DNA of 64,000 nt from Minisyncoccota bacterium. Lineage in GTDB: Bacteria; Patescibacteriota; Minisyncoccia; Moranbacterales; UBA1568. The translations under genes were made by a program, and so were the position numbers. Shown in pieces: positions 4,396 to 64,000 of the stretch (position 1 is the stretch's first letter; every line of letters begins with the position of its first letter). The notes under the pieces were generated by a model. That model had not been told where the DNA came from, searched no databases, and saw only the letters and a list, made by a program, of their open reading frames with translations. The stretch spans positions 409,144 through 473,143 of the forward strand of contig JBPPMJ010000003.1 of the NCBI GenBank assembly GCA_051306005.1, in the 5' to 3' direction.

Positions 4396-4404
4396 GAATC
4401 CATT

Positions 4405-17582: not shown

Positions 17583-17683
17583 AGAGTTTGTTTGTTCAAC
17601 AAATAAATAAGAGATACCAAACATTATTTCTCATTTTTTGTCTGCTGTTTCTCTTTTGTTAAGAATATCATATATCTAAAAAA

Positions 17684-32878: not shown

Positions 32879-34178
32879 TGGTTTCTAAGCTACGACGTAA
32901 AATTCCTGACAACATTTTTTCTTCATCAACATAATCCAGCAAAGCAAGATTGGCCAAACCAAGTGGAGTAATGTCTTGTGGATTGGTTAGTTCTCCAGTT
33001 ATATCTGTCATACGAGCAATATCTTTTGGTTGTAAAAAACTCACTTGTATTTCCTTGGTAAAAGGCAAGTTGGCACTACGCCATTCCTGAGAAAGCAGAG
33101 ACTGCTTGATACCCGGTAAGGCTGATCCGCCACCGCACAAAAAAATACGGGATGGTAAAATGTCTGTCGCTGCAAATTCCAACAAAGAAAGTTCAACGCC
33201 ACCAAGCCAGATACGACAGTCATCACTATACAGGGCACTGATACGATCTGTTTCTGATTGACTCAAACGCCCATGCGCATAATCTAACTTAAGTTTTTCC
33301 GCCACATCCAAACTGAGTTGCAATTCCTGTGCCAAACGCTTCGTAAAAGCTAGACCCCCCAAAGCGAACATTTTAGTCCCTTCCAGACCACCGTTGCGCA
33401 CCACGGCAATGTCGGTAGTACCGCCTCCAACATCAATAAAAATAGCATTGAAATCCAAAATATCTTCCACCTCAACGGATCGTGCCACAGCATATGGTTC
33501 CGCGGCAATGGAAATCAGATCCAAATCAAGTTCATCTGCGATAGTCTGCAAGGCACCAAGATGAATCATCGGCGCATAAGCATTAAACACGCTCATCGAA
33601 ACGTCTCTACCCTGAAAGTTAATCGGCTTAGAGACATGATATCCATCAATGCGCACATCAACAATAGCTGCATTAATGAGCTTCACATCAATATCATCCT
33701 GCCCTGTTTCCCAAGAAAGTTGATGTTTAATACGTTGATACGCTTTTTCCTGGACTTTTTGAATAATCATTTTTATCTCGGCCAACCCAATACGCACTTC
33801 TGCATTCACCCGCTCATAATGGACAGTGGTCGTAGTTCCTTTGACTAGTTCACCAGCAATACCGATAATACTTTTTTCCACCCGTTTGACACCAGCCTTT
33901 TTCTTCGCAAGCGTAATAGCTTCACGTGCCGACACAATCACACCGCCGATATCAGCGACCGCTCCACTTTGCATATTACCAGTACGCTGTGCCACCCTCC
34001 CCACGCCGATGACGACACCGGTTTTTTGCTCACGATCAACTCGAAAAATCAATGCCTTGACCACTTCAGTACCAATATCCAAAGCGAGCACCAAATCAGT
34101 TTCCCGCCTCCAAAAAAGTTTTGAAAAAAGACCCATAGAAAATAGCTGTTTGTTTTCTTTTACTATTATACTACACAT
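32865..34178 (-). CDS. ftsA: actin-like ATPase, FtsA family (cell division)
   Basis: LALDIGTEVVKALI (phosphate 1), IFIDVGGGTTDIAV (phosphate 2), FLCGGGSALPGI (adenosine motif), and a 1C-like insertion. 437 aa. Confidence 0.7.
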   Translation of the reverse strand: MCSIIVKENKQLFSMGLFSKLFWRRETDLVLALDIGTEVVKALIFRVDREQKTGVVIGVGRVAQRTGNMQSGAVADIGGVIVSAREAITLAKKKAGVKRVEKSIIGIAGELVKGTTTTVHYERVNAEVRIGLAEIKMIIQKVQEKAYQRIKHQLSWETGQDDIDVKLINAAIVDVRIDGYHVSKPINFQGRDVSMSVFNAYAPMIHLGALQTIADELDLDLISIAAEPYAVARSVEVEDILDFNAIFIDVGGGTTDIAVVRNGGLEGTKMFALGGLAFTKRLAQELQLSLDVAEKLKLDYAHGRLSQSETDRISALYSDDCRIWLGGVELSLLEFAATDILPSRIFLCGGGSALPGIKQSLLSQEWRSANLPFTKEIQVSFLQPKDIARMTDITGELTNPQDITPLGLANLALLDYVDEEKMLSGILRRSLETIEKQ

Positions 34179-47403: not shown

Positions 47404-48705
47404 TCATTGACGTTCTTCCAAAGTCAGATTCACTTCTTTCACCTCACCTTTGTGCCAAACCTTCAGTGTGAGGACAGTACCGACAGTGTATTTATTGATC
47501 AAAGTTATGAGAGGGTGTTTCTCGTCCACTTTCTCTCCGTTGACTTCCAAGATAATGTCATTTTCTCTCAAACCAGCTTTATCAGCAGGAGAGCCAGGAA
47601 GAACAGCTAAGTCTGTTATATTTTGTCCACGGACGATCAATGCGCCATACCCGTTTGGCAGATTGTTTTCTTTTTGAATTTTTTCATCTATCATTACAGA
47701 ACGTACTCCGATATAAGGCGTAGAGAGTTTTCCCGTCGCACTTACCTGTTCCACAATACGCTTGACTTGATTAATAGGCAAAGCGAAACCGATATTTTCC
47801 GCTCCTTGCGCCATCGCGACATTAACACCGATAACTTCTCCCTTGAGATTAAATAATGGTCCCCCCGAGTTACCAGGATTGATAGCAGCATCAATCTGAA
47901 TGATATCAATCAATTGTTCCTCATCACCGGCAAAGCGAGATCCCGCTGACACGTTACGTTGCAGTCCCGACACGATACCGCGTGTTACCGAACCAGAAAA
48001 TTCGCCCAGCGGATTGCCAATGGCAATGATAGTCTGACCTACTTTGAGGGTATCAGAATTACCGAGGTGCAAAACCGGTACTTCTTGTCCATCTACTTTC
48101 AAAATTGCAATGTCATTAATCGGATCACGTGCCAACACCCTTGCTTGATATTCCGTACCATTTTCACTTATCACGGTGTATTCTGCATCCGTATCCGCTA
48201 CCACATGTTTGTTGGTTACTACCAATCCATCCGCTGATACAAAAAATCCTGAGCCACTGCCCACTTGTTGACGTTCCGTTTCTGGTGTTGACATATCCTG
48301 TGGTGTTCCAAATGGACTGAAGAAAAATGGCATACTTCCGCCAAAGGGATTACCAAAAAAAGAACGTGCTTTGGGCATATCCTTGGTAATGACAATACTG
48401 ACCACACCGGCCGCGTTATTATCCACGACCTGCATCACGGATAGCTCTTCTGTGTTGTCATTAGTCAAACCAGTATGAACCGTATCACTGTCTACCTTTT
48501 CAGTTTTCTCCAAACGGAAATGTTCAGCAGAGAACCGTACGATAGAGGGCGCAAACATTCCTCCCAAAAAACCGGACAACACTGCCGTCAACAAAAATAT
48601 TCCTCCCTGTATTACTGAGAGATGGCGAATAGGGTAGCGCGAAGTATCAATACTGGCAGAATGATTTGTAAACGGCTCCGTTCTTTTTTCTTCTTGTTTG
48701 TACAT
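47404..48705 (-). CDS. htrA: HtrA/DegP serine protease with a PDZ domain (intact catalytic triad)
   Basis: TNKHVV (His), DIAILKV (Asp) and GNSGGPLFN (Ser), plus an N-terminal TM and a C-terminal PDZ. Confidence 0.9.
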   Translation of the reverse strand: MYKQEEKRTEPFTNHSASIDTSRYPIRHLSVIQGGIFLLTAVLSGFLGGMFAPSIVRFSAEHFRLEKTEKVDSDTVHTGLTNDNTEELSVMQVVDNNAAGVVSIVITKDMPKARSFFGNPFGGSMPFFFSPFGTPQDMSTPETERQQVGSGSGFFVSADGLVVTNKHVVADTDAEYTVISENGTEYQARVLARDPINDIAILKVDGQEVPVLHLGNSDTLKVGQTIIAIGNPLGEFSGSVTRGIVSGLQRNVSAGSRFAGDEEQLIDIIQIDAAINPGNSGGPLFNLKGEVIGVNVAMAQGAENIGFALPINQVKRIVEQVSATGKLSTPYIGVRSVMIDEKIQKENNLPNGYGALIVRGQNITDLAVLPGSPADKAGLRENDIILEVNGEKVDEKHPLITLINKYTVGTVLTLKVWHKGEVKEVNLTLEERQ

Positions 48706-50224: not shown

Positions 50225-50496
50225 AACGTCAATATGGCAACAATCACTACCTGACTCGCTTCAAAATATTTCTACAAAGTCTTCTAATACAAAAACAATG
50301 GCGCCAACAAAAAGACGAGCATAGACACCATAATGATCACAGAAACAACCACCCACACTCTATAAGCATGTTTATGCGTTTTCTTGAAACTCATATCTTT
50401 GATTGATATTATTTTCTTTACTATACCAAAAAACACCGAAAAAACCAAATGAGTTTCCCAAGTATTTGCCACTGCAGAAAAACAAGCTACCATTGT

Positions 50497-52533
50497 CTAC
50501 TCCCGATTTGATTTCGTTTCGTTTAGCAAAGAACGCACTTCGTCAAGGTTGACAGAAGGTCGATGTCTGAGAGTTTTAAATTTTTTTGGTCCGATGTGTT
50601 GTGCGTCTCTCAAAGAAATCGGTTTCTCCGTCATCACGTAGGACTTGGGCGTGGTCAAAGACGCGGGTACAGCAGAAACTGGCGCACTCTGTGTTTGTTT
50701 GACCAGAGGCGCGGATAGAGTATGTTGTGCTGTAACTTCATTACGTGCTTTGGCGACCGACCGCTGATATTCACGCAAACAGTCTTTGCAAAATGTCGGA
50801 CGCTTGGCATCCGGTATGAAGGGTACTTGAATCTCAATGCCACAACTGGCGCATTGAGCTGGATACAATACTTTTTCCGATAATACCGAAGCTGGCGTTG
50901 ACTGCTCAACGGTCTCTGTTGCCTGACGTGCTGGTCGCGTCGCTGGTGATACGGATTGTTGGGGCGACTCTGATACTTCCAAAGAAAGCAATGACGTACG
51001 TTTTGGCGCCAACGGTGGTTCAAATGGTGCCAACAAAGGCACGTCGTCTGATGAGGATACTGGCGCGACAGCAGGAGAAGCTAAACGATGATGAGATGTC
51101 ACAATCCGGTTATTGACATGTGGTGCAACGTCTCGGGCGTGGTGTTCCGCATGTGATGGAATAGATGCGCGTGATATCGGAACGGATTTTTTCATCGGAA
51201 CTTCTGTTTTAGGCACTTGTTCCGCGATTGCTTGACGTTCTTGGGCAGTCAACATTCCACTCCATCGACGAATCTTTTCTTCAACTTCAACACGACTTGA
51301 AGCATAGCGCTCTCGAGAACTTTGAATGATTTTAGCTTCGTTAGCAACCGCTTCCAGGGCAATCGGCGGGAGTGTTGTCGCAGAAAAAGCATCTCCCGCG
51401 ATACCGTCGATCATAAGTTTGAGATAAATCTCATATTTCGGCAAATTGATAATATCATTCATAACGAAAACGGGCGCAAACTCTTTTTCCAAAAATTCCG
51501 CATCAGTCGCGCCAACCCGAAACGAAATAATAGTGCCGGCATTACCAAAAATGGCATCCCGCACCTTCTCATCAATTTGCGTCACGTACTGATTGGCAAG
51601 AATCAAATTGAGATGATACTTACGAGCTTCAGAAAGGATATTCGCAAAAGACTCCGTAGCAAAGTTTTGAAACTCATCGACATACAGATAGAAATCTTTG
51701 CGTTCATCTTCTGGCATATCCACTCGTCCCATCGCCGCGAGTTGAATCTTGGTAATCATCATGGCACCCAACAAAGCACCGTTGTCTTCTCCGATACGTC
51801 CTTTGGCAAGATTGATAATCAAAATCTTTTGTCCATCCATGACGTCACGAATATCAAACGATGAAACTGTCTGACCAACGATATTACGAATCAGGGAACT
51901 TGAAAGAAATTGTCCCACCTTGTTTTGAATCGGTGAAATGACTTCCTGGAGTACACGGTCGTTCCATTGAGAAAATTCATCTATCCAAAAGGCACGCACG
52001 ACAGGGTCGGTCACTTTTTCCACGATACGAGCTCGATAAGCCTTGTCAACCAAAATACGCGTTACACCAAGGAGTGTCGTACCAGGGTATTCCAACAAGG
52101 CGAGCAACGCATTACGTAAAATATATTCCAAACGAGGCCCCCAAGAATCTGCCCAAATTTTCTTGAACACACCGATAAGGCCCGAAGCAACCAGATGCCG
52201 GTATTCCGGATCGACTTTTTCCATGACATTGAATGCGAGAGGGAAGTCTTGATCAGCAGGATTGAGATAAATCACGTCATTGATACGATGGGCAGGAATG
52301 GCTTTGATGAGTTTTTCCGCCGTGTCACCGTGTGGATCAATAAAAGCGATACCATGTCCTTTTTGAATATCCTGAATCGCCAGATTCTCCAGGAGATTGG
52401 TCTTACCCATACCGGTCTTGCCGATAACATACATATGTCGCCGACGATCATCCACTTTGATACCAAACACTTGCTCCTTATTCCGAAAATTTGTTTTGGC
52501 AAAAAAACTGATTTCATCTTGATTGTGCGACAT
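50497..52533 (-). CDS. type IV coupling protein-like ATPase (VirD4/TraD/TrwB family), cytoplasmic, with a C-terminal zinc ribbon
   Basis: Walker A GKTGMGKTN, Walker B LYVDEFQNF, and a TraD/TrwB-like all-alpha insertion. There are no N-terminal TM helices. The C-terminal ~250 aa are low-complexity (S/P/A-rich) and end in CASCGIEIQ...CKDC (CxxC-N17-CxxC). Confidence 0.7.
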   Translation of the reverse strand: MSHNQDEISFFAKTNFRNKEQVFGIKVDDRRRHMYVIGKTGMGKTNLLENLAIQDIQKGHGIAFIDPHGDTAEKLIKAIPAHRINDVIYLNPADQDFPLAFNVMEKVDPEYRHLVASGLIGVFKKIWADSWGPRLEYILRNALLALLEYPGTTLLGVTRILVDKAYRARIVEKVTDPVVRAFWIDEFSQWNDRVLQEVISPIQNKVGQFLSSSLIRNIVGQTVSSFDIRDVMDGQKILIINLAKGRIGEDNGALLGAMMITKIQLAAMGRVDMPEDERKDFYLYVDEFQNFATESFANILSEARKYHLNLILANQYVTQIDEKVRDAIFGNAGTIISFRVGATDAEFLEKEFAPVFVMNDIINLPKYEIYLKLMIDGIAGDAFSATTLPPIALEAVANEAKIIQSSRERYASSRVEVEEKIRRWSGMLTAQERQAIAEQVPKTEVPMKKSVPISRASIPSHAEHHARDVAPHVNNRIVTSHHRLASPAVAPVSSSDDVPLLAPFEPPLAPKRTSLLSLEVSESPQQSVSPATRPARQATETVEQSTPASVLSEKVLYPAQCASCGIEIQVPFIPDAKRPTFCKDCLREYQRSVAKARNEVTAQHTLSAPLVKQTQSAPVSAVPASLTTPKSYVMTEKPISLRDAQHIGPKKFKTLRHRPSVNLDEVRSLLNETKSNRE

Positions 52534-52545
52534 AGTCTCTGTATC

Positions 52546-53847
52546 TTAAAGATTTTGGATTGGTAAATTGGCAGGTGCACTACCACGTTTGGCTGTCACT
52601 CGAGTGAGCGCCGGTGCCGTCACTGACATATCAGGAATATGAAACACGGTCGCCAATTCTTCCGAACTGAGCAAGAAACGAGTATGCTGAGGATCGGTAT
52701 CACGATTGATATATCGACGCAGTATCTGGCGCTGATAAAAACGCAGTCTTTTTTGAACAAAAAGATATTTTGCATCAGTTTTCGTATTATTCAACGGTTT
52801 GAAACCATTGAGATTTTGATCAGAAAACTGCTTCAAACCTCCGACAAAAGCGGAAACGCCCGTCATCTTGTTAAAAATACCCCGTCTTCCAATATAGACA
52901 TAACGCATACGAACCTTGAACATCTGTTTACCAAGATTATTTTCCAAGGCTTTCAAAACATCTTTTTCACCCGGTGTCAGACGAAATTCCACTGGTGCCT
53001 CATCTTTTTTTTCAGCTTTAGCGCCCGTTGAAAATGTGGTTTCCCCTCCCGTCAAGCCACGGCCAATGTTGGCAAAAACATCTATGAAATCCATAAACAA
53101 ACGCATCAAAATTCCCATCTTCTTTTCTTTAACTTTTCCCAAAAAAGTATCGATGGTTCCTCTGCCTGTTTTATACCAATCTTCTTTGACGGGCGTAATG
53201 GTGTACTGTAGCCACAAATGTTGTCCAGGGCCGGCGGTTCCCATAGTCTCAAACAAGCCTGCCAATGGATCTATCATCGTTCCCGTTACCGTTTCTTCAA
53301 AAAATTTGTATGTTTTGATAGGATACAGATCCTCCTTAACCAGTCCAAAGTCCGCACCCCATATATCCCAATCTTTGTTGGGAATCGTTTTCGGTATGTT
53401 CTTCACATAATCTGGCACTTCTACAATTTCCACACCAGGATACTGTGCATAAAAATGCGCTTCCACTAGATTACGAAAACCCGTCTGTGTCCGCACATAC
53501 ATATGCGTCGTTCCATTGGTACTGGCAATTTCCAATGAAAATGAAACTGGTAACTCTCCAATAATCCACTGCTCTGATGTGTTTGGCGATTTCAAAACAC
53601 CAGATAGCCCTGAAAAAATAGATTCCATGGGCTGAGGGCTTTTTTCAATATCCCGCGGAGGGATAATTTCCAACAACACCCACGTTATCTTGGAAGCAAA
53701 TTTTCCTTGAACATGGTCTTCCCAAAGAATTTTGAAGAGAAACAACAGAAAGGGAGGGAGAATAAAAAACCAAAGCACGGAAGCAACGGAAAATACCGTT
53801 GTCATCAGGGAAAAAATGTTGATGAAATCAGCGAAAAGAGTATTCAT
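52546..53847 (-). CDS. membrane protein partner of the T4CP-like ATPase
   Basis: 433 aa with two N-terminal TM helices and a large soluble domain. Its stop is 13 nt from the start of the ATPase gene. Confidence 0.5.
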   Translation of the reverse strand: MNTLFADFINIFSLMTTVFSVASVLWFFILPPFLLFLFKILWEDHVQGKFASKITWVLLEIIPPRDIEKSPQPMESIFSGLSGVLKSPNTSEQWIIGELPVSFSLEIASTNGTTHMYVRTQTGFRNLVEAHFYAQYPGVEIVEVPDYVKNIPKTIPNKDWDIWGADFGLVKEDLYPIKTYKFFEETVTGTMIDPLAGLFETMGTAGPGQHLWLQYTITPVKEDWYKTGRGTIDTFLGKVKEKKMGILMRLFMDFIDVFANIGRGLTGGETTFSTGAKAEKKDEAPVEFRLTPGEKDVLKALENNLGKQMFKVRMRYVYIGRRGIFNKMTGVSAFVGGLKQFSDQNLNGFKPLNNTKTDAKYLFVQKRLRFYQRQILRRYINRDTDPQHTRFLLSSEELATVFHIPDMSVTAPALTRVTAKRGSAPANLPIQNL

Positions 53848-53920: not shown

Positions 53921-55012
53921 TTATTTCTTGAGAGTGTAGGTATGCTTGCCCACGCGCTCAAAAAACATGTTCAGATTGATAATAATAGTGGATTGCTTCA
54001 CTTGACGCACTTGCAACACCGCTTGAATCGCTTCATCTCGAGACAGGGGTCTTGTTGATTTTCGAAGTAGCTCGTGCAAAACATCCTTAACGGTGCCTTT
54101 GGAATATCCCCATTCGGACAAAGCATATACTCCGCGTCCCACCAAAACGAAACATTCATCTTTAATCAATTCATTATGTACTGTTTGTGGATGACTCTGG
54201 CGCTTTTTTCCTCGGTGTAATCCATGACTGTCGATTTTTTCTGCGATTTCACGAAAATGCATCGGTGTACCAGACATTTTCAAAACCAAACGCGCTTTCT
54301 CCCGAGTACCACGCGGTTTAATATCACCCCACGCACTGAGACCCCATTGACCAAAAACATTCTGACGAATACCTTTGGCAACCGCCAAAAAATCAAAGAG
54401 TTTTTGGCGATCAGCTGAACCGTGCGTCTCAGTAAAACGTGTGAACAAGGTATCGGCATCTAACGCATGTCCAAACTCTCGCAAAATAAACTCAATATCC
54501 GCAATAACCTTCTGCCATTGCGCAAAGGAAAAATTTGGTGTCGTGTATACTTTCTCACGTTCCGTGGTACCTTTGTGTTCTCGGATAGCAAGAGTACACT
54601 CGACAAAAACAGACAGTGCCCCATGTTCTCGCCCACCTTGTGGTGCAAGAATGTCAAACAACTCTACTGCTTTTATGATACCACTTTTTTTCTCAAGAGT
54701 CGATTGGATACGTGACACAGCGGAAAGGAATGATGGATGTTCACCTTTTTCGCCCAAGGATATCAATGCGCTTCCGATGACCTGGCGCACACGCTCCCGT
54801 GTTACATGATATGTTTGGCCGATTTCTTCCAACGTTTTGGGCATTTCTCCCGTCAAGCCAAAACGCGCCGATACAATTTCACGTGAACGTGGAGAAAGAC
54901 ATACCAAAAACTCCTCCAGGCGCGAGGCAAAGAATGGTTTTTCCGTAACAACGGCGGAACGCTTTTTGGTTGGTGGCAAGTTACGTACGGACATATTATA
55001 CAAATTCAACAA
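53921..55012 (-). CDS. transcription factor with an N-terminal sigma-70 region 4 and a C-terminal HARE-HTH domain
   Basis: Region 4.2-like LSPRSREIVSARFGL...TLEEIGQTYHVTRERVRQV. The C-terminal MHFREIAEKI...LIKDECFVLVGRGVYALSEWGY resembles the RpoE(delta)-type HARE-HTH. There are no sigma regions 1-3. Confidence 0.6.
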   Translation of the reverse strand: MLNLYNMSVRNLPPTKKRSAVVTEKPFFASRLEEFLVCLSPRSREIVSARFGLTGEMPKTLEEIGQTYHVTRERVRQVIGSALISLGEKGEHPSFLSAVSRIQSTLEKKSGIIKAVELFDILAPQGGREHGALSVFVECTLAIREHKGTTEREKVYTTPNFSFAQWQKVIADIEFILREFGHALDADTLFTRFTETHGSADRQKLFDFLAVAKGIRQNVFGQWGLSAWGDIKPRGTREKARLVLKMSGTPMHFREIAEKIDSHGLHRGKKRQSHPQTVHNELIKDECFVLVGRGVYALSEWGYSKGTVKDVLHELLRKSTRPLSRDEAIQAVLQVRQVKQSTIIINLNMFFERVGKHTYTLKK

Positions 55013-55137
55013 TAAATAAAGAGTCTAATATGTAGAATGAAGGGATTTTTTATTCAATGTTCTACAATAGCAATTTATATTACCGCACGTTCTTGTGTTT
55101 TGTCAACCCCCAAGTGAGATCCTCACCACACATTACC

Positions 55138-55165
55138 TTGCTTCACCAAAAAAATATGCTATACT
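55138..55165 (+). promoter_or_regulatory. sigma-70 promoter TTGCTT-N16-TGcTATACT
   Basis: The same extended -10 architecture as the promoters at 27842 and 43081. Confidence 0.5.
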
Positions 55166-55239
55166 ATATTCTGTGTACCGATATACTTTGCAAAAGTTTT
55201 CTACACACTAAAATACCAATACAAATATCAAACATAACT

Positions 55240-55989
55240 ATGTCCAAAAATATTGCTCCACAGGAAAATGAGCACAATGAGCATGATCAAGCGATGAAAA
55301 TCCAGGCACTGCGGGATATGGTTTTGAGCGCTGAAAAAACCATTCAAGGTGCCAAAGCGATGTTGCTCCAACTTGAAGGAAAGAAAAAATCTGGACGACC
55401 GCGGAAACTGGATGCCAATGGCGAAGATGGTACGGTCATCGAAGGGACTTTTGATGGACAAGTAATGATCGGGACAGATGGTAAGCAGTATCCCGTTCCC
55501 GCGAATTACGCCTCCAAGTCCAAACTTGTTGAAGGTGATATTCTCAAACTTACTATCACTTCCAACGGCACTTTTCTCTACAAACAGATTGGTCCGATTG
55601 AACGTCGTCATGCCATCGCCATCGTCACCCAAGATGAAAATGGTAACTATTATGTGCTGGCTGATAGCAAACCCTACCGCGTCCTATTGGCATCCATCAC
55701 TTATTTCAAAGCAATGCCGGGAGACGAAGTCGCCATTGTCATTCCCAATGAACTTCCCGCTACCTGGGCTGCCATTGAAAATGTTCTCCAAAAAGGTATC
55801 CACCCAAGCATGCTATCCACAACCGAAAAATCCAGCACTGATATTGATCATTGGAAACAGGGTATGCAAGAAACACCCTCTACTCCACTCGTCCCACCGT
55901 CCACACCGGCACAAACGACTGTCTTGGATGCCTGGGTGCGCGATATGGAAGCTATAGAAAAAGAAATTAATAATACCGCTTCAGTATAA
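55240..55989 (+). CDS. hypothetical protein
   Basis: About 250 aa, acidic N-terminus. The start was set at MSKNIAPQ, because the longer ORF from 55057 runs through the promoter region. Confidence 0.5.
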   Translation: MSKNIAPQENEHNEHDQAMKIQALRDMVLSAEKTIQGAKAMLLQLEGKKKSGRPRKLDANGEDGTVIEGTFDGQVMIGTDGKQYPVPANYASKSKLVEGDILKLTITSNGTFLYKQIGPIERRHAIAIVTQDENGNYYVLADSKPYRVLLASITYFKAMPGDEVAIVIPNELPATWAAIENVLQKGIHPSMLSTTEKSSTDIDHWKQGMQETPSTPLVPPSTPAQTTVLDAWVRDMEAIEKEINNTASV

Positions 55990-56714: not shown

Positions 56715-58385
56715 ATGCCCGAATCCACTACCCTCTATCGTAAATATCGTCCACAGATTTTTGCCGATGTTGTAGGCCAACAACCTATCGTCACCACGCT
56801 GACCAACGCTCTCAAGCTTGGACGTGTCGGTCAAGCATATCTCTTGACGGGTCCGCGCGGAACCGGCAAAACAACACTTGCCCGTCTCTTTGCCAAAGCT
56901 ATCAATTGCTCTGCCCGCAAACCAAAAAGTGCAGAACCCTGCAATCAGTGCCAACACTGTCTCTTGATGGCAGAAGGACGATCACTGGACGTGACTGAAA
57001 TTGATGCTGCCTCACATACAGGTGTAGACAATATTCGCACTCTTCGTGAAACCATTCAGCTCCCACCTACCCTCGGCTCTCACAAAATCTATATCATTGA
57101 TGAAGTACATATGCTCTCCCTTGGGGCATTCAATGCGCTCCTCAAAACTCTTGAAGAGCCTCCGGCTCATGTCGTTTTTATTCTCGCTACCACAGCTTTG
57201 CACAAAGTACCGGATACCATCATTTCACGTTGCCAACGTTTTGATTTGATCCGTTTTCCTGTAACTTTGATTACACAAAAACTCAGAAAAATCACCACGC
57301 AAGAAAAACTCCATATTACTGACGGTGCGCTTGAAATGATTGCCCTAACAGCCGAAGGCGGAATGCGTGATGCCGAATCCTTGCTCACACAAATCGCTTC
57401 ACTCGATATTTCTCCGATTACTGAAGACACCATCATTGAGATTTTGGGTACAACAAAACAAGCGAATATCGTTACTCTGCTTCAGCATATCAGCAATCGT
57501 GAACTCTATCCCGGTCTGGCGTATATCCGCCATCTCACCGACGAAGGCATTGATTTTTCGTTATATTGCGGAGCTCTCCTGCGTTATCTGCGTGATGTCC
57601 TCTTGGTTTCTGCGGATATGATCAATGGTCCTGCCCTCTTGACGCACCTCACTCCTGAACAACAAACTACTCTCACTGATCTGGCAAAGCATTTTACACC
57701 AGATGATATCGTGCGGATGCTCGAACACTTTCAGATTGCTTCCGCTGACAGCAAAACATCCGTCATTTCTGAACTTCCATTGGAAATTGCGTTTGTCAAA
57801 ATTCTCGCACCATCCACTCCTCCGGACAGCGCCACAACAACATCTGCACCAATGACTCTGCTACCTACTCCGACAGCCAATAACATTCCCTCAAATGCAG
57901 ATACAACAAAAAAGCCGTCGTCATTTTCAAAGATTCAAACATCCACAATAACAACAACATCAATTCAGTCAACAGATGATGCGAGTGTCGATACCATATC
58001 AGTCGGCACATCCGTCACCCTTGCCACTGTCCATACAAACTGGCAAAAAATACTTGACACAGCCAAAAAACTCAATGCCTCTCTTACTCTCGGGCTCTCC
58101 ACTGCCCGTCCTATCAAAACTCATGGCACGCTCATCACTATTGCTGTTAAATATCCTTTCCACAAAGAACGTCTTGATGAACCTGCTAATCAATTGACAC
58201 TCCAGAGCGCCTTTGATACTATTTTAGGGTTGCAAATTAAAATTGCGATTGTCCTGGAGGACACCCGTGTCCCAGACAACGATGTTCAACAACCAGTCAA
58301 AACCTCTGAAAAAGACTCTGCTTCTGATGTATTGATCAATCAGGCGATGAAACTTTTGGGAGGGACGATGGTCAATGAAGCATAA
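56715..58385 (+). CDS. dnaX: DNA polymerase III subunit gamma/tau
   Basis: YRPQIFADVVGQ, GPRGTGKTT, a zinc module CSARKPKSAEPCNQCQHC, and DEVHML. The C-terminal third is Thr/Ser-rich and low-complexity. Confidence 0.93.
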   Translation: MPESTTLYRKYRPQIFADVVGQQPIVTTLTNALKLGRVGQAYLLTGPRGTGKTTLARLFAKAINCSARKPKSAEPCNQCQHCLLMAEGRSLDVTEIDAASHTGVDNIRTLRETIQLPPTLGSHKIYIIDEVHMLSLGAFNALLKTLEEPPAHVVFILATTALHKVPDTIISRCQRFDLIRFPVTLITQKLRKITTQEKLHITDGALEMIALTAEGGMRDAESLLTQIASLDISPITEDTIIEILGTTKQANIVTLLQHISNRELYPGLAYIRHLTDEGIDFSLYCGALLRYLRDVLLVSADMINGPALLTHLTPEQQTTLTDLAKHFTPDDIVRMLEHFQIASADSKTSVISELPLEIAFVKILAPSTPPDSATTTSAPMTLLPTPTANNIPSNADTTKKPSSFSKIQTSTITTTSIQSTDDASVDTISVGTSVTLATVHTNWQKILDTAKKLNASLTLGLSTARPIKTHGTLITIAVKYPFHKERLDEPANQLTLQSAFDTILGLQIKIAIVLEDTRVPDNDVQQPVKTSEKDSASDVLINQAMKLLGGTMVNEA

Positions 58386-59932
58386 TACGGTTTCATTGAA
58401 AAATATTGTGGGGAGTAGCCAAGCGGTAAGGCAGGGGCCTTTGAAGCCCCCATACGAAGGTTCGATCCCTTCCTCCCCAGCATTTGTGAAAAGTCACCAT
58501 TTTTAGGTGATTTTTTTAGTATCTCAAACGGCATTTTGAAGCTCGATGAAGGCATTTCTTTGTGTTGAATTTCAAGGTTCCAAAGTAGTCTTTCAAGCAT
58601 TTTCGATTTCCTTTCGTTAGGGGCAGTGATAAATTCTTTTTTGGCTCTACTAGCGGTTAAAAAGATCTCTTTAATTTGTTCTAAAGTACTTAGCCCTCCC
58701 TCCGTTTTTGATCCGATTTTTCGCAACTGCGAATTAATCATTTCTCTTTCATTTTGAATTTGCTTCATTTTTGCCTCGTAAGCGTCAGAAGTGATATGTT
58801 CGGCCAGATACACATCCAAGAGCTTTGATTCTCGACCAGCAAGGCTTTCAAGCTTATTTAAGAGCGTTTCCCGAGAGGTTTCTTGGTAAATTTCTGTCTG
58901 CATGCTTTTTTCCTTTCGAGCGAGATAGGCCAATTCGATCAATTCCTCATCAAAATGGATTTCATCAAACAGGGTCGCCACGATAGCTTCAACGCTTTCA
59001 GACCGCATATAGCTTCGGTGTTCCTCACAGCGATTTCTGCCATTTGTGCAGTAGTAATAATCGTGCCCCTTTTGACGGCTGGCAATAAAGGCACAGCCAC
59101 CGCATTTAAGATATCCTCTAAGGGTGAAGACTAACTTCTGCTTCTTGGTATGGATTCGGCGATACAAAACATCTTGTACCTTTTCAAACAATTGCTGGGG
59201 GACCTCCGGTTCGTGGCGACCCTGATACAATTTGCCATTTCGCTCCATGAGCCCGTAATAGAAATGGTTAGAAAGAATTTTATGAATTTTACTTTTGTGT
59301 ACTTTACGATCATTGAGGGTTCGGAAGCCGTCTTCGTATAAAAGAGTGGCGATATCCATAACACTATATCCGCCAGTAGCATACAGTTCAAATGCTTTGA
59401 GAATGTAGGGTGCCCGCTCCTCATCAATGATAATAGTTTTGTTGAGTTTATCATTGAGATACCCAATAGGAGCGACACCAGGCCAGCCACCTTTTTCAAG
59501 TTTTGTTTTATTCCCACGTTTCACATTAACGGAAAGATCATCAGAATATTTTTTACCTACACCAAAGTCAATCGAGAGCATGAACTTGTCGATTGGATTA
59601 TCTACGATGATTTTATCAATCGTCCGAATTTCTTTAATATTTCCATTTTCCAAAAGGTCGATAATCTGAGAGCCGTCAAAAATATTTCGGGTCAATCGAT
59701 CAACCTTCCAAGCAAAAACGATGCAGTCTTTATTCTTGCTGATATATTCAAGCATTTCTTTGAAAACAGGCCGGCCAGGATGTTTGGCTGACATACTTTC
59801 TTTGTATGTTTTATCAATTTTGAACCCAAGCCTGCTAGCCATTTTCAAAAGCTCCGTTTCTTGCGATTCGATAGACATCGCTTGACGATCTTCACTTTCA
59901 GTAGATTTTCTGGCGTAAAGGATATGTTTCAT
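58340..59932 (-). CDS. large serine recombinase (resolvase/integrase family)
   Basis: N-terminal catalytic domain YARKSTESEDRQAMSIESQ (Ser nucleophile in a YxRxS context), a recombinase domain, a Zn ribbon (CGGCAFIASRQKGHDYYYCTNGRNRC) and a C-terminal coiled coil. The ORF reads antisense through tRNA-Gln and 46 nt into dnaX. Confidence 0.85.
   Translation of the reverse strand: MKHILYARKSTESEDRQAMSIESQETELLKMASRLGFKIDKTYKESMSAKHPGRPVFKEMLEYISKNKDCIVFAWKVDRLTRNIFDGSQIIDLLENGNIKEIRTIDKIIVDNPIDKFMLSIDFGVGKKYSDDLSVNVKRGNKTKLEKGGWPGVAPIGYLNDKLNKTIIIDEERAPYILKAFELYATGGYSVMDIATLLYEDGFRTLNDRKVHKSKIHKILSNHFYYGLMERNGKLYQGRHEPEVPQQLFEKVQDVLYRRIHTKKQKLVFTLRGYLKCGGCAFIASRQKGHDYYYCTNGRNRCEEHRSYMRSESVEAIVATLFDEIHFDEELIELAYLARKEKSMQTEIYQETSRETLLNKLESLAGRESKLLDVYLAEHITSDAYEAKMKQIQNEREMINSQLRKIGSKTEGGLSTLEQIKEIFLTASRAKKEFITAPNERKSKMLERLLWNLEIQHKEMPSSSFKMPFEILKKSPKNGDFSQMLGRKGSNLRMGASKAPALPLGYSPQYFSMKPYYASLTIVPPKSFIA
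58409..58480 (+). tRNA. tRNA-Gln (anticodon UUG)
   Basis: Manual cloverleaf. Acceptor TGGGGAG/CTCCCCA with U1:A72 and discriminator G73, both characteristic of bacterial tRNA-Gln. D-arm GCC...GGC, anticodon stem GGGGC/GCCCC with loop CTTTGAA, and T-arm GAAGG-TTCGATC-CCTTC. No CCA is encoded. Confidence 0.85.
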
Positions 59933-60861
59933 ACAGCGTATCTTTCCAAGATATCTACTTTAATTTCTCGTAACAGTTTTGGATGGTCTTTTAGACTACA
60001 GAAATCTACAACTACATGTTTCAGATATTCTTGATCGTACTCATAGGTACTGAGCTTTATCTTATCTTGTTCTAAAACAGTCCGAACAAGATTGACTACC
60101 TCATTAAAACTATGAATAATTGGTTTTTTGAGCCCCTTACTAGCGAAGTAGCTTTTTCTAGCTAGTAATCTACCGTCCTCAACACTTTTGGTCAAATATT
60201 TGCATAGATACTTAATCAGACCAGACTCACTTCTTACCGACTCCACCTGAGCAGTTCCCTCGCCGACACCTTTGCGCCATTCGTCTCGCATTTTGTCATA
60301 GATCCTGTCTATCCAGGGCAGATTGAAGAAAATGACATGGTAATGAATTGCTCCACGATTCTGAAATTCTACGACTGCTAAATATTTCAGAAATGTCATT
60401 TTGCCTCGAATATCGTAGCCCAATCTACGGATGAAATTGGTGAATTCATTGTGAGCGTACGTTAGATCGGTGACATTTTCCCGAAAAGTAAAAGTGATGA
60501 AAATCGGTAGATAGGGTTGGCCACCTCGCTTATACCATTGCCATGCATTACAAAGAATAAGATCTGTAATGGTATTTTTAGCTCGCTTCATACTCTTCAG
60601 ACGTATTTCTTTTGGAGTCAGTTTTTCCTTATCAACTTTTTCGGTATCACCACTTTTTCTAATTCTACTTCGTTTGCCAATCATACGATCACGTTCATAG
60701 TGGGATAGCTCCAAGTAGAAACCACAAAGCTTTACTCGTTGATTAGAAAAATATACGGTCGATTCACAATTATCAAAACTTTGAGGGATGTCCGGATTGA
60801 GCATAAGGAATGAAAGAGTAGCTATCGCATTAAGTGATGCTTTAAATAAATATAACGACAA
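59929..60861 (-). CDS. rolling-circle replication initiator (HUH endonuclease, two-Tyr superfamily)
   Basis: Motif 1 FITFTF, motif 2 HYHVIFF (HUH), and motif 3 KYLCKYLTK (YxxKYxxK). Its stop overlaps the recombinase start (ATGA). The ORF-track start is a TTG at 60861, and the first ATG is at 60804. Confidence 0.75.
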   Translation of the reverse strand: MSLYLFKASLNAIATLSFLMLNPDIPQSFDNCESTVYFSNQRVKLCGFYLELSHYERDRMIGKRSRIRKSGDTEKVDKEKLTPKEIRLKSMKRAKNTITDLILCNAWQWYKRGGQPYLPIFITFTFRENVTDLTYAHNEFTNFIRRLGYDIRGKMTFLKYLAVVEFQNRGAIHYHVIFFNLPWIDRIYDKMRDEWRKGVGEGTAQVESVRSESGLIKYLCKYLTKSVEDGRLLARKSYFASKGLKKPIIHSFNEVVNLVRTVLEQDKIKLSTYEYDQEYLKHVVVDFCSLKDHPKLLREIKVDILERYAV

Positions 60862-60908
60862 GAGGCAGACGTCTACCGCTAAGGCGGTAGCCGATCTGCC
60901 TGCTTGTC
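60857..60908. repeat. imperfect 23-25 bp inverted repeat with a taag loop at the 5' end of rep (candidate dso or recombination site)
   Basis: GACAAGAGGCAGACGTCTACCGC taag GCGGTAGCCGATCTGCCTGCTTGTC, with about 18 of 23 positions paired. Confidence 0.6.
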
Positions 60909-61070
60909 AAAAGCATTTATGAAATCAGCCAAAGAATCTAGATACTCATCGGCTTCATCATCCGAGATAGTCAAAGCACAGCGTTTTTGAAAATACGCTT
61001 TACATCGATCTCTTAATTCTTGGCTGAACCGTTGCTTCATTTCCCAGAGAATAATAATTCTGGGAAACAA
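60879..61070 (-). CDS. small ORF upstream of rep (possible Cop/regulator)
   Basis: 63 aa, at the position of copy-control proteins in RCR replicons. An 8-bp perfect hairpin spans its start. Confidence 0.35.
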   Translation of the reverse strand: MFPRIIILWEMKQRFSQELRDRCKAYFQKRCALTISDDEADEYLDSLADFINAFDKQADRLPP

Positions 61071-61102
61071 AAAAACCGACCATTAAATTGAGTCGGTTTT
61101 TG
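61069..61102. terminator. bidirectional rho-independent terminator
   Basis: aaaaa-aaccgac-(11 nt loop)-gtcggtt-ttt. Confidence 0.65.
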
Positions 61103-61347
61103 GGCATTAAAACCATTTAAGGATACACAAAGAGGACTCAACCTAAATAAGGTTTTCCCAAAGCGCAAAGTGTTGCCTCAAATAATTTCAATTATGATGG
61201 TGACCTCGTAGGGCTCATTTTTCCACCTTTGATCCAGGTCGTTGGCGAGACGATAAATATAATATATGTAAATTTTCGGGATTTACTCGGTTTTTAAGTT
61301 TCCAAAGCAAAACTATACCTATATCCAATTTTTGTCAGGAAGCACCT

Positions 61348-61668
61348 CTAACGGAATGGATCGTACATCTCGTTCGTGTATCTTCCATCGTGACCATCAT
61401 CTGGTGGTGATCCAGCAGGGATAATACCGAAAAAACCCAACCACATAACAATAAATCCAATAACAAATAAGATACCCAAGAGGGTTGTAAAAACTTTCCA
61501 AGGCAGTTTAAGACTACCAAGAATTGAGGCTAGAACCTTATCAAACTTTGATGAAGTTGGAGTTATTCTAATAAGATCGTCGTAATGATACCAAGTAAAC
61601 ACTACAATCAATACTAGTATTATTAAACCCCATTGTTCCAGTCCATTCATATATTCCAAATACCACAC
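61348..61668 (-). CDS. small 2-TM membrane protein (element cargo)
   Basis: 106 aa with two hydrophobic helices and a Gly/Asp-rich C-terminus. Confidence 0.45.
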   Translation of the reverse strand: MWYLEYMNGLEQWGLIILVLIVVFTWYHYDDLIRITPTSSKFDKVLASILGSLKLPWKVFTTLLGILFVIGFIVMWLGFFGIIPAGSPPDDGHDGRYTNEMYDPFR

Positions 61669-61692
61669 ATAGCGAAAACTATGGTTTAGGCC

Positions 61693-61698
61693 TATAAT
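61693..61698 (+). promoter_or_regulatory. TATAAT -10 box upstream of the cargo operon
   Basis: cctataat at 61691-98. Confidence 0.3.
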
Positions 61699-61738
61699 TC
61701 AGTTGTTAATGTTTAGTATATCATGGGGTAGAAATATT

Positions 61739-62329
61739 ATGTTAATAGTATGTAATATAGAAAATCTGATCCAGGCTATTTCGAACATTGTTACAGTTTT
61801 GGCTACAATTGCGGGTATTTTTCTTGCGATAAAGGGGTTTAGCACATGGAAGGACCAGCTAAGAGGCAAGACCGATTACGAACTAGCAAGAAGATATTTA
61901 AGAGCTATCTATAAGGTTCGAGACGCAATAAAATTTGTCAGGAACCCATTTATACCCGTAGAAGAAATGGGTGTGGCACTTAAGCAAAGCGGAAAGACAC
62001 AAGAGGATGATAGCCGAGAAACTACAAGAATGGTTTATAATCTTCGTTGGAAAAAAGTTAATGAAGCCGAATCTGATCTCAGAGTAGAATTATTAGAGGC
62101 AGAAGTTTCTTGGGGCCAAGAAGCATTAGATGTCGAAAAAGATTTTCATGCATGTGTAATTAAAATTTATGTTGCCCTAAAAATGTATCTAGATTTTGAT
62201 AATTCCTCTGAAAGAAGAAAAGAGGATAAGGAATTAATTTACGATCAAGGAGAGAATGACAAGTTCAATAAAGAGCTCGATAGTGCAATCAAAAAAATTG
62301 AGAAGTATCTTGCGCCACATCTAAAATAA
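61739..62329 (+). CDS. hypothetical protein with an N-terminal TM and a helical cytoplasmic domain (cargo gene A)
   Basis: TM IVTVLATIAGIFLAI followed by a charged helical domain. The ATG at 61739 is used. The ORF track starts at a TTG at 61703. Confidence 0.5.
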   Translation: MLIVCNIENLIQAISNIVTVLATIAGIFLAIKGFSTWKDQLRGKTDYELARRYLRAIYKVRDAIKFVRNPFIPVEEMGVALKQSGKTQEDDSRETTRMVYNLRWKKVNEAESDLRVELLEAEVSWGQEALDVEKDFHACVIKIYVALKMYLDFDNSSERRKEDKELIYDQGENDKFNKELDSAIKKIEKYLAPHLK

Positions 62330-62374
62330 ACGAGTGCAATTAGAACAGTTAAAGCTTCTTAGTTTGGAAAATAT

Positions 62375-63154
62375 ATGAGTGAATTTACTAAAAAAACTAC
62401 CCGGGAAGTTATCCAAAGCAATAGAATTGCAATAAAGAGTGATCGACCAAAAAAAGCACTGCAGAACAATCCAAACCTATTAAATGAAGAGCAAAAATAT
62501 GCAGAAGTAGAGATCAATAATATTCTCGTAGATATAACTGGACAATACTCCGAGTTAGTACCTTATATAAAAAGATTAAAAAATTTCGTACCAGATATAA
62601 CAGAAGAGACTCATTATTGTGCGGTTTACTTATTATTTTGCCAATCTGCGACCTACTGGGATTCAATTTTTTTACTAGCCAAAAATGGAAATAGCTCTGC
62701 TATTCAAGTAATCACGAGAACAATAAAAGAAGCTTTTGCACTAACCGAACTGTTTTCTTTGGAATTTTACGAAGGTAAAAATGAACATTTATTAAAATGG
62801 TTTTCTGGTGAAATAATCAGTAACGGTGCCCATCGAAGAGCAATGAATGAATTTTTCGAAAAAACACAAAGTGGCGCTACTATTTTAGAGGAGATGTCGA
62901 GAGATTTATATAGAATGGAATCTCATTCTATACATGTAGCATACACCTCCGTATTGGAATGTATCAGTCCGTTTACAGAAGATTTTGATTTTGAAAAATT
63001 TACCCGATTTAGACGAACGAGCTATAATTTAGGTTATGTGAAGGGTGCTATGGATGGGACAAATATTGCTCTAAAATTTGCATATAAATTTCTACTACGA
63101 GACCTAGAGAGTTACGATCAACTTGAAAAAATACTGATCAAATATGAGAAATAA
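62375..63154 (+). CDS. hypothetical all-helical cytoplasmic protein (cargo gene B)
   Basis: 259 aa with no recognisable catalytic motif. The R/H-containing stretches (GAHRRAMNEF and RDLYRMESHSIH) are at best a weak HEPN/Abi-like hint. Confidence 0.5.
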   Translation: MSEFTKKTTREVIQSNRIAIKSDRPKKALQNNPNLLNEEQKYAEVEINNILVDITGQYSELVPYIKRLKNFVPDITEETHYCAVYLLFCQSATYWDSIFLLAKNGNSSAIQVITRTIKEAFALTELFSLEFYEGKNEHLLKWFSGEIISNGAHRRAMNEFFEKTQSGATILEEMSRDLYRMESHSIHVAYTSVLECISPFTEDFDFEKFTRFRRTSYNLGYVKGAMDGTNIALKFAYKFLLRDLESYDQLEKILIKYEK

Positions 63155-63596
63155 TCAAATAAGTAAGAATGGACTAAGTGAAGGAAATCAAAACTTTATT
63201 GTGATTTTGGTTTTGGTCTTCTTACTAGTCTTTGGACCCATAGAACCATTTGGACTGGCTATTCGATTTGCATATTTGATTATCATTCCAATACTAGCTC
63301 TATTGGTATTGCGACATTTGGGGCAAAAATGCAACATGGATAAGCTATCAAATGATCGATTAAATCGAGCACTTTTGTCTGGGATAGCAGGGGCTCTTTT
63401 AGTCGGCGCATACCTTTCATATACGGCGAGTAGCCATACCGAGTGCGACCAATATGTTCAAACTAGAGAGGGAGAAGAGTGTGTTGGCGACTATATAACA
63501 GTAAAAGGGCCCGACAAAGGGAGTGCATTAATTCAAATCTTGTTCGCTGGAATAGCGATTTGGTACGCTGTTGCAAAGAGACCCGAAAGAGACTAA
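63144..63596 (+). CDS. small polytopic membrane protein (cargo gene C)
   Basis: 150 aa with 3-4 TM helices and a Cys-containing extracytoplasmic tail. It overlaps gene B by 11 nt. Confidence 0.5.
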   Translation: MRNNQISKNGLSEGNQNFIVILVLVFLLVFGPIEPFGLAIRFAYLIIIPILALLVLRHLGQKCNMDKLSNDRLNRALLSGIAGALLVGAYLSYTASSHTECDQYVQTREGEECVGDYITVKGPDKGSALIQILFAGIAIWYAVAKRPERD

Positions 63597-63631
63597 ATAA
63601 GTTCCAGCTTCGTCCCAGAGCCTCAAAACCA

Positions 63632-63666
63632 TAAAAAAGAACCCCAGAATAAAGGGGTTCTTTTTA
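63632..63666. terminator. bidirectional rho-independent terminator
   Basis: aaaaaa-gaacccc-agaataaa-ggggttc-ttttta. Confidence 0.8.
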
Positions 63667-63675
63667 TGTCTGCTG

Positions 63676-64000
63676 TTATCGAAGCTCGTACTTGATTTTC
63701 ATTCCAGCTGTGTCCCAAAAAGATTTCATCTTTCCGAGTTTCGTGGGCGTACCAGCATCATGCATCCAATCAGCAAGTGTTTCTGCGTAAACCTTTGAAA
63801 CTTTCTTGAGAGCATCTTCAGGACTAGCTGTAAACGACGCTTCCGTATCCACTTTGACGTACATTCTCAAAGGGGAAAGCAATGGATAAATAAAGGCTAT
63901 CGGAATCTTATAAGGCACTGACCTTTCAATGAAAGGAAGCTCATCCCCATCCTTTTTTCTGCTCTTCCGGACTGAATCCAGATCTTGTATAGCTTTCACC
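63676..64000 (-). CDS. hypothetical protein, probably 5'-truncated by the window edge
   Basis: ORF open to the edge. The apparent start at 63999 is a GTG. Confidence 0.3.
   Translation of the reverse strand, partial: VKAIQDLDSVRKSRKKDGDELPFIERSVPYKIPIAFIYPLLSPLRMYVKVDTEASFTASPEDALKKVSKVYAETLADWMHDAGTPTKLGKMKSFWDTAGMKIKYELR

Follow-up and report, generated by a model that had tools for sequence, protein, structure and literature searches.

What does an ATPase resembling a type IV coupling protein (T4CP) do in a chromosomal region that holds no other gene of a type IV secretion system (T4SS)? This question is raised by two co-directional genes in a 64,000-nt stretch of DNA (the window, to the whole of which all positions refer), which reads as a segment of a Patescibacteria (candidate phyla radiation, CPR) chromosome. 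One open reading frame (ORF), at 50497-52533 on the minus strand, encodes a 678-aa ATPase; the other, upstream of it, encodes a 433-aa partner of the DUF8128 family. A first-pass annotation had taken the pair for a split coupling protein made of a soluble ATPase and a partner with two transmembrane (TM) helices. Its observations were largely correct, except that the partner has one TM helix rather than two. We consider it probable that the pair is one T4CP in two pieces, tethered to the membrane and serving a T4SS that is encoded elsewhere.

Both ORFs are genes rather than chance ORFs, since each has thousands of homologues. All 8000 of the 8000 candidates scored matched the ATPase, which thus has at least 8000 homologues, and 4668 of the 8000 candidates scored matched the partner. 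The partner family comprises 1702 clusters (50% identity) at E ≤ 0.001 and 650 at E ≤ 1e-30. The nearest relatives belong to Moranbacteria, at ~70% identity. The features of the two genes, all on the minus strand, are as follows.

52546..53847 (-): DUF8128 (PF26449) partner, 433 aa; predicted membrane anchor and cytoplasmic domain resembling the VirB4 N-terminal domain
53722..53778 (-): single conserved TM helix, residues ~24-42, VLWFFILPPFLLFLFKILW; Kyte-Doolittle (KD) maximum 2.23
52630..52662 (-): C-terminal motif EELATVFHIPD (family consensus EELATxxHFP), invariant or nearly so across the family
52534..52545 (-): spacer of 12 nt from the partner stop codon to the ATPase start codon, an operon-like junction (direct sequence reading)
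51214..52533 (-): VirD4/TrwB-like P-loop motor domain, residues 1-440 (Pfam and PDB sequence matches)
52399-52422 (-): Walker A, GKTGMGKT, residues 38-45 (sequence reading)
51673-51690 (-): Walker B, YLYVDE, residues 282-287 (sequence reading)
50869..51213 (-): low-complexity linker, residues 441-555, S/P/A/V-rich
50770..50868 (-): zinc ribbon CxxC-x17-CxxC, residues 556-588, zf_Tbcl_2 (PF23477)/TIGR04272
50497..50769 (-): C-terminal tail, residues 589-678 and stop codon; a basic motif, PKKFK..L..RP, is conserved (alignment consensus)

The ATPase resembles coupling proteins

According to Pfam, the ATPase matches TrwB_AAD_bind (38.3 bits, cut-off 20.5, residues 27-336), TraG-D_C (27.4 bits, cut-off 22, residues 282-349) and DUF87 (26.0 bits, residues 31-75), all above cut-off. 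The TrwB_AAD_bind alignment is unbroken across residues 27-336, with ~240 residues between Walker A and Walker B, the interval in which T4CPs carry an all-alpha domain. The best PDB sequence matches were TrwB (1e9r, 7e-8) and DotL (2e-5), and the PDB sequence matches included no FtsK chain and, at E ≤ 1, no VirB4 chain. Among the NCBIfam equivalog and subfamily models, the ATPase scored below cut-off on SXT_TraD (51.2 bits versus 366) and on the VirD4-like CD1115 (32.4 bits versus 250). The first-pass annotation had set an FtsK/SpoIIIE identity against its own. FtsK_SpoIIIE (PF01580) did not match the ATPase at E ≤ 0.01, and no FtsK model matched in NCBIfam, so its proposal of a T4CP-like protein was not refuted. 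Overall, the best profile and PDB matches, to TrwB, DotL and TraD, support an assignment of the ATPase as T4CP-like and not FtsK-like.

The remaining features of the ATPase were also as annotated. Its maximal hydrophobic window reached a KD of only 1.27, indicating that the protein has no TM helix and lacks the N-terminal transmembrane domain (TMD) that T4CPs carry in their own chain. Residues 431-555 are 50% S/P/A/V (18 S, 16 P, 15 A and 14 V of 125), and this linker is poorly alignable among homologues. The ribbon that follows, with cysteines C561/C564 and C582/C585 separated by 17 residues, scored above cut-off on both TIGR04272 (44.5 bits, cut-off 36) and zf_Tbcl_2 (41 bits, cut-off 27). 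Of the complete Moranbacteria orthologues, 72 of 73 have this ribbon, as do 28 of 41 diverse orthologues; K/R-rich tails take its place in the others. Zinc binding has been shown experimentally for members of this ribbon family in Methanosarcina (PMC12704099).

DUF8128 combines a membrane anchor with a VirB4-like fold

The 433-aa protein precedes the ATPase on the same strand, 12 nt away, in agreement with the first-pass annotation. A precomputed PF26449 match is recorded for the identical protein in one of the fetched contigs (L001) and for all of the listed homologues. The named DUF8128 members come from Moran-, Nomura-, Komeili-, Uhr- and Kerfeldbacteria and from the 'Parcubacteria group', all of them Parcubacteria-type lineages; the name itself was not met in our literature search. 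Some public gene calls begin the protein at Met15 (419 aa). We favour the 433-aa start because the first 14 residues (MDILFSSFADIFSM-type) are conserved in relatives.

The two TM helices that had been ascribed to the partner were not borne out. In 99 diverse family members, we found one strongly hydrophobic 19-residue window (median KD 1.87) and a second, non-overlapping window of KD ≥ 1.6 in just two. Ahead of the helix lies a weakly hydrophobic or amphipathic stretch, and in a structural model residues 2-53 form one continuous helix. In the same 99 proteins, the TM window is flanked by 0.53 K+R on the N-terminal side and 2.47 on the C-terminal side. By the positive-inside rule, this excess indicates an N-out/C-in topology and a cytoplasmic body.

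The structural model was calculated with AlphaFold2 from an alignment of the 99 sequences and was confident, with a predicted local distance difference test (pLDDT) score of 91.2 and a predicted template modelling (pTM) score of 0.86. An earlier model based on 20 close homologues (pLDDT 51) was discarded in its favour. In Foldseek searches of the PDB, the 13 best matches were all chains of TrwK. In BFVD, the model matched Bacillus phage G gp156 (E 1.3e-18) and the VirB4-like gp155 (E 2.7e-6). As these fold matches include no P-loop ATPase, the partner resembles the non-ATPase, N-terminal domain of VirB4. The DUF8128 profile matched no PDB sequence. The partner has a single TM helix and, after it, a ~380-residue domain resembling the VirB4 N-terminal domain. 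Within its C-terminal motif, A399 and H403 are invariant and E396, E397 and P405 nearly so.

Single-chain relatives suggest one protein in two pieces

A single profile of unknown function, phrog_5156, takes in both members of the pair: of its 824 positions, 74-360 match the partner and 408-813 the ATPase (E 5e-60). In tblastn searches, the ATPase domain retrieved single-chain proteins of 800-1200 aa from phages and plasmids. The phage carriers are Bacillus phages G (gp156), SPO1 (gp27.4), CP-51, JL and TP-84, and the plasmid carriers are Bacillus, Streptomycetaceae (actinomycetes) and haloarchaea. The ATPase domains of the five fused proteins listed below are 22-33% identical to that of the window (E 4e-64 to 2e-11; phage G, tblastn E 4e-47). 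For the partner, tblastn of the INPHARED phages returned no match, and its link to phages rests on the PHROG profile and the BFVD folds. Five fused proteins were compared.

B. subtilis plasmid NZ_CP032854: 886 aa, annotated as 'DUF87 domain-containing protein'; N-domain hhalign 98.6%
Bacillus phage G gp156: 825 aa; N-domain hhalign 98.5%
Haladaptatus plasmid: 1193 aa; N-domain hhalign 90%
Embleya plasmid NZ_CP108778: 812 aa, annotated as 'type IV secretory system conjugative DNA transfer family protein'; N-domain hhalign 88%
Bacillus phage SPO1 gp27.4: 906 aa; ATPase domain in the C-terminal half, N-domain outside the hhalign comparison

All four N-terminal halves put against the DUF8128 profile aligned with it. 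The alignments include the EELAxxHxP motif, which in the fused proteins stands immediately ahead of the ATPase domain. A fused paralogue also occurs in a metagenome contig (L139, 13012-15246, minus strand). This 744-aa protein has no TM helix and no zinc ribbon, adjoins dnaX and is 43% identical in the ATPase domain; the contig additionally encodes a stand-alone DUF8128 protein without an adjacent ATPase gene.

Where informative, the neighbours of the fused genes are of conjugation type. On the Embleya plasmid, the order is a PrgI-family protein, a VirB4-like ATPase, the fused protein, Replic_Relax and NlpC/P60. On the B. subtilis plasmid, the fused gene is followed by Replic_Relax, TcpE and VirB4 (AAA_10), which belongs to the same transfer cluster and lies ~3 kb downstream. 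In SPO1, gp27.4 precedes gp27.3 (Replic_Relax), and in phage G the VirB4-like gp155 precedes gp156. Thus, three of five fused forms lie directly upstream of Replic_Relax, whose family name refers to plasmid replication and DNA relaxation, and three of five lie beside or near a VirB4-like gene. Because Replic_Relax adjoins and VirB4 is separate, the fused proteins hold the position of a coupling protein. The linkage to relaxase or T4SS genes that characterizes T4CPs is present in the fused plasmid homologues and absent from the window. Both Bacillus phages (SPO1 gp27.4/gp27.3, L087; G gp155/gp156, L088) carry a gene resembling that of a coupling protein, a motor of conjugation type.

Together, these comparisons support the view that the pair behaves as one split protein of which DUF8128 is probably the N-terminal half. 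The split coupling protein of the first-pass annotation is upheld to this extent by phrog_5156 and the fused homologues, but the partner is more than the simple anchor it was taken for.

The closest plasmid or phage homologue found was an ATPase-only protein of 395 aa on Sulfitobacter mediterraneus plasmid NZ_CP081110 (L169, 7001-8188; 40.7% identity, E 1e-97). Horizontal acquisition of this gene is possible, as it is surrounded by transposases and a recombinase and has no DUF8128 partner.

The pair is a conserved chromosomal unit in Patescibacteria

We fetched 166 related loci, totalling 1.94 Mb, with flanks of 7-8 kb or, in L001-L003 and L084-L086, as much as 10 kb. Eighty of them, each from a Moranbacteria species (L004-L083), had been gathered with lineage-specific patterns, which returned only Moranbacteria. 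A second sample comprised 80 diverse metagenome loci, in which counts were restricted to those with room for the gene in question. In Moranbacteria, wherever the contig was long enough, the order was invariant: a gene with sigma-70 region 4 and HARE-HTH domains, then DUF8128, then the ATPase. The diverse loci had the ATPase gene no more than 600 nt after DUF8128 in 51 of 74 cases, and the sigma/HARE-HTH gene ahead of DUF8128 in 39 of 67. The ATPase domain was 57-69% identical in nearly all of the diverse loci and the partner 29-39%. The flanks consist of housekeeping genes that vary by lineage. The conserved order, identity and housekeeping flanks indicate that the pair are vertically inherited core genes and not a mobile element.

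The division-gene neighbours that had been noted at this locus are present, including DivIC, a PpiC-type rotamase and HtrA, but prove to be lineage-specific: DivIC lies further downstream in many Moranbacteria loci, and this synteny is confined to Moranbacteria and missing in more distant relatives. In two closely related loci of the 166 (L159, 3987-9115; L160, 1539-6846) and in none of the others, DUF8128 is followed not by the ATPase but by ComEC, a ComEC metallo-beta-lactamase domain and PilM, all genes of DNA uptake or pili.

Two further ORFs flank the pair.

53921..55012 (-): upstream neighbour, 363 aa; sigma-70 region 4 (residues 36-83) and HARE-HTH/RNA polymerase delta-like domain (residues 238-301)
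50284..50493 (-): small ORF, 69 aa, 3 nt downstream of the ATPase gene; C-terminal hydrophobic helix

The upstream neighbour matched Pfam Sigma70_r4 (48.7 bits) and HARE-HTH (42 bits) and has no sigma region 2. In NCBIfam, it matched only the region-4 ends of RpoD-type models and TIGR04567, RNA polymerase delta. It is possibly a DNA-binding accessory factor, tied to the pair by synteny only; in every sufficiently long Moranbacteria locus it shares the strand of the pair. A promoter-like site was noted upstream of it (55106-55077, minus strand); such sites did not exceed the shuffled expectation, and the same held for the promoter and terminator scans. The 69-aa ORF is annotated as a gene in L001 and L002, whose contigs are identical to the window. 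Its tblastn matches were limited to the nearest relatives (100% in L001-L003, 60% in L010), and its membership of the module is uncertain.

T4SS genes are absent locally and present elsewhere

With Pfam we scanned 44 window ORFs, namely DivIC and all ORFs of ≥150 aa other than the pair, CTP synthase, L9 and shadow ORFs, and found no VirB4, VirB6, pilin or relaxase family among them. In tblastn and phmmer searches, no VirB4 or Replic_Relax homologue was detected in the window or in the 1.94 Mb of related loci.

A published survey of 3035 Patescibacteria genomes reported VirB4 in 2417 and 5713 T4CP homologues in 2918 (Quinonero-Coronel et al. 2025, PMC12102498). Only 148 T4CP genes were close to virB4 and only 109 relaxases were found; T4CP homologues lay far from virB4 in ~96% of Patescibacteria, and exaptation was raised as a possibility (PMC12102498). 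The ATPase of the window is probably among these homologues. Six of the six Moranbacteria genomes that supplied a locus to our set are VirB4-positive in Table S1 of that study. For one genome, GCA_000990585.1, Table S3 has entries for VirB3, for VirB4 next to TrsD and, at a distance, for two 't4cp1' matches (PMC12102498), to which we would assign the ATPase by inference rather than by accession. In this genome and in GCA_000990565.1, the VirB4 matches cover 53-58% of the virb4 profile and lie beside TrsD (PF11130, N-domain-like) (PMC12102498). From this partial coverage and the adjoining TrsD, the VirB4 of the lineage itself seems to be split into an N-domain gene and an ATPase gene. Such a division, TrsD plus VirB4, would parallel that of DUF8128 plus ATPase.

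In the single species examined, the Patescibacteria T4SS has proved to be required, and no substrate of it is known (PMC11665869, PMC10633639). A cultivated Patescibacterium takes up host RNA by an unresolved route (2026 preprint). The T4SS elsewhere usually comes without a relaxase and so does not count as a standard conjugation system. The orphan status claimed by the first-pass annotation therefore holds locally, in the window and the 166 loci, but not for the genomes of relatives, which encode a VirB4-type T4SS elsewhere. The outcome that the annotation had set against its own reading, a conjugative T4SS elsewhere with the ATPase as its standard coupling protein, is thus realized in part: all six relatives carry VirB4, but the system is non-standard.

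Proposed mechanism

In the mechanism that we propose, DUF8128 would insert into the membrane via its single N-terminal helix, N-out/C-in, and present its VirB4-type domain to the cytoplasm. Through a contact between partner and ATPase, it would tether the motor to the membrane, where the VirD4/TrwB-type motor, by analogy with TrwB, may form a hexamer. The VirB4-like domain would dock this motor onto the inner-membrane platform of the chromosomal T4SS (VirB3/TrsD/VirB4), which derives from the mating-pair-formation type MPF-FATA. In solved systems, the VirB4 subunits have T4CPs between them, and hetero-oligomers of VirB4 and T4CP have been suggested (PMC7434980). The zinc ribbon or K/R-rich tail, on its flexible linker, would most plausibly bind the substrate or an adaptor; the 363-aa neighbour, with its two helix-turn-helix (HTH) domains, is a candidate for the latter. 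The motor would then deliver a nucleic-acid or nucleoprotein substrate to the T4SS channel or pull a substrate from it, the direction being left open. With relaxases all but missing from the phylum, a plasmid strand piloted by a relaxase is an unlikely substrate. In this lineage, the pair would have become chromosomal core genes physically apart from the T4SS locus.

Several observations weigh against this mechanism. Synteny gives no support for a link to a T4SS, as neither a T4SS gene nor a relaxase occurs in the 166 loci or the window. The ATPase scores far under the NCBIfam equivalog cut-offs for TraD and VirD4. The similarity of DUF8128 to VirB4 is one of fold only, an hhalign comparison with two VirB4 proteins having returned no sequence similarity. 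In 23 of the 74 diverse loci, no ATPase gene lies within 600 nt downstream of DUF8128 (4 have it further off, and in 19 it is absent from the flank). More genomes carry T4CP homologues (2918) than carry VirB4 (2417; PMC12102498). In Ca. Southlakia epibionticum, the distant t4cp is dispensable according to transposon sequencing (Tn-seq) while the T4SS is essential (PMC12102498), and the essential T4SS cluster has no recognisable coupling protein or relaxase (Wang et al. 2023); neither this t4cp nor Saccharibacteria could be tied to the DUF8128-paired family.

Alternative functions

An unlikely alternative, although one with several observations in its favour, is that the pair acts independently of any T4SS as an autonomous membrane-anchored translocase. 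It would work alone or with ComEC or type IV pili, importing or exporting DNA or RNA, for instance in nucleotide scavenging. The absence of T4SS genes from every locus, the excess of T4CP-bearing over VirB4-bearing genomes, the suitability of zinc-ribbon or K/R-rich tails for binding nucleic acid, the succession of ComEC, metallo-beta-lactamase domain and PilM directly after DUF8128 in L159 and L160, and the import of host RNA by a cultivated Patescibacterium would all be in keeping with such a role. However, the ComEC adjacency is limited to the two related loci, and every fused homologue with informative neighbours sits with VirB4-like and/or Replic_Relax genes. One TM helix per subunit offers no obvious channel. 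In addition, some VirB4-negative genomes keep TrsD, so VirB4 may be missed in them rather than absent.

Distinctly doubtful, in our view, is a function in uptake in which the pair would pull host RNA or DNA into the cell through the T4SS, with the tail gripping the polymer and the N-domain subunit taking a VirB4-type position. If this were true, a coupling protein of conjugation would have been reversed and domesticated for parasitic feeding. The preprint on host RNA uptake makes a role in import worth testing; the present data do not demonstrate one.

It is improbable that the pair is a split VirB4 paralogue, i.e., a second ATPase for assembling or energising the T4SS rather than its substrate receptor. 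The partner does have the VirB4 N-domain fold, and the two genes reproduce the layout of N-domain followed by ATPase that Patescibacteria VirB4 itself apparently shows as TrsD and VirB4. Nevertheless, the ATPase fits the T4CP profiles and TrwB/DotL, and reached only 15.7 bits on the VirB4 model TIGR00929 (cut-off 643). Moreover, plasmids and phage G encode a separate VirB4 in addition to the fused form, which adjoins Replic_Relax in Embleya, B. subtilis and SPO1, as a coupling protein would, and no VirB3-like gene is adjacent to the pair.

We consider an FtsK-like translocase of chromosome segregation or division very improbable. T4CPs are members of the FtsK-HerA superfamily, and DivIC lies downstream in many Moranbacteria loci, but that synteny does not extend beyond Moranbacteria, FtsK was not matched in Pfam, NCBIfam or PDB, and the ATPase has neither a gamma domain nor a multi-TM N-terminus. 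A part in anti-phage defence, as a HerA- or MADS mad8-like ATPase, is more doubtful again. The ATPase matched PADLOC mad8 (62.8 bits, E 9e-18) and, weakly, HerA, and the upstream 363-aa gene matched MzaA through its sigma region 4, but these are generic P-loop or HTH similarities. The partner had no PADLOC match, and the pair is near-universal, vertically inherited and set in a housekeeping context, unlike patchy defence islands. Finally, it is hardly credible that the pair is left over from an integrated conjugative element or a prophage: fused relatives do sit on plasmids and in phages, and an integrated element lies ~4.5 kb beyond the partner gene (58.3-64 kb), but that element is separate, lying beyond dnaX and tRNA-Gln, whereas the pair has a GC content of 0.42-0.44, as elsewhere in the window, its synteny is kept in 80 species, and the ATPase is under strong purifying selection.

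Other features of the window

Up to 58 kb, the GC content of the window is 0.41-0.45. Its housekeeping genes include ClpB, DnaK/GrpE/HrcA, DnaB, RecR, aminoacyl-tRNA synthetases and an FtsA-like gene, as well as enolase, PGK, ScpA/B, CTP synthase and DnaX. Two ClpB-like AAA+ proteins (1812-4418 and 14943-17624, both on the minus strand), one of them without Clp_N or AAA_lid_9 matches, and two HtrA-like trypsin-PDZ proteases (12620-13858 and 47404-48705, both minus) are encoded; both sets of duplicates fall within one 64-kb stretch of a reduced genome. No Pfam family was found for the ORFs at 4300-6210 (plus strand, 636 aa), 6222-7370 (plus, 382 aa), 30920-32878 (minus, 652 aa) and 55057-55989 (plus, 310 aa). 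The 652-aa ORF lies directly upstream of the FtsA-like gene (32865-34178), with a 14-nt overlap.

The probable integrated element occupies 58340-64000, next to tRNA-Gln (58409-58481), and its GC content falls to 0.365-0.38. It encodes a large serine recombinase (58340-59932, minus) and a rolling-circle Rep (59929-60861, minus; REP_ORF2-G2P, phrog_3419), followed by ORFs without a confident family. The recombinase ORF overlaps both dnaX, at its 3' end, and the tRNA.

Significance and comparison with known systems

Three elements of this analysis are new. The structural model supports a VirB4-N-domain-like identity for DUF8128, as one half of a coupling protein. Sequence comparisons point to a class of fused relatives carried by Bacillus phages and by plasmids of monoderms and archaea. 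The third is the conserved sigma/HARE-HTH neighbour. As the location of T4CP genes away from virB4 has already been published (2025), the result is a refinement and not a new kind of system. The study in question (PMC12102498) describes neither the DUF8128 partner and its VirB4-like fold nor the zinc-ribbon tail and the fused relatives. The T4CP-like motor, conserved and with a tail that may bind nucleic acid, is an obvious candidate component of the Patescibacteria T4SS, and DUF8128 and the ATPase provide a defined two-protein target. A VirB4-type N-domain in a T4CP-like class of monoderms, archaea and phages would also bear on the divergence of VirD4 and VirB4 and on docking at the channel.

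The single-chain T4CP-like proteins have the same module order as the pair, a DUF8128-like N-domain ending in EELAxxHxP and then a T4CP-like ATPase. They differ in being one polypeptide on mobile elements, whereas the version in the window consists of two chromosomal, vertically inherited genes, with an added linker and zinc-ribbon tail on the ATPase and no relaxase or T4SS gene nearby. Like the TraJ/TraI pair of pIP501 and the TraG-TraJ pairs, the window encodes a soluble coupling ATPase together with a neighbouring gene for a protein that would recruit it to the membrane (PMC7434980, PMC12857230). By analogy with this recognised subclass of 'T4CP lacking TMD', the anchor would be supplied in trans, here by DUF8128. 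Unlike pIP501 TraI, which is small and has two predicted TM helices, DUF8128 has 433 aa, one TM helix and a large VirB4-N-domain-like domain.

With TrwB of R388, VirD4 and TraD, the ATPase shares the P-loop motor, the spacing of ~240 residues between Walker A and Walker B, and the TrwB_AAD_bind and TraG-D_C profiles. In contrast to the pair, these canonical T4CPs have their own two-helix TMD, lack a VirB4-like N-domain and are encoded with relaxosome or T4SS genes. With VirB4/TrwK, the partner shares the fold of the N-domain without detectable sequence similarity, and the sequence of the ATPase is VirD4-like instead. The pair, moreover, does not lie beside VirB3 or VirB6.

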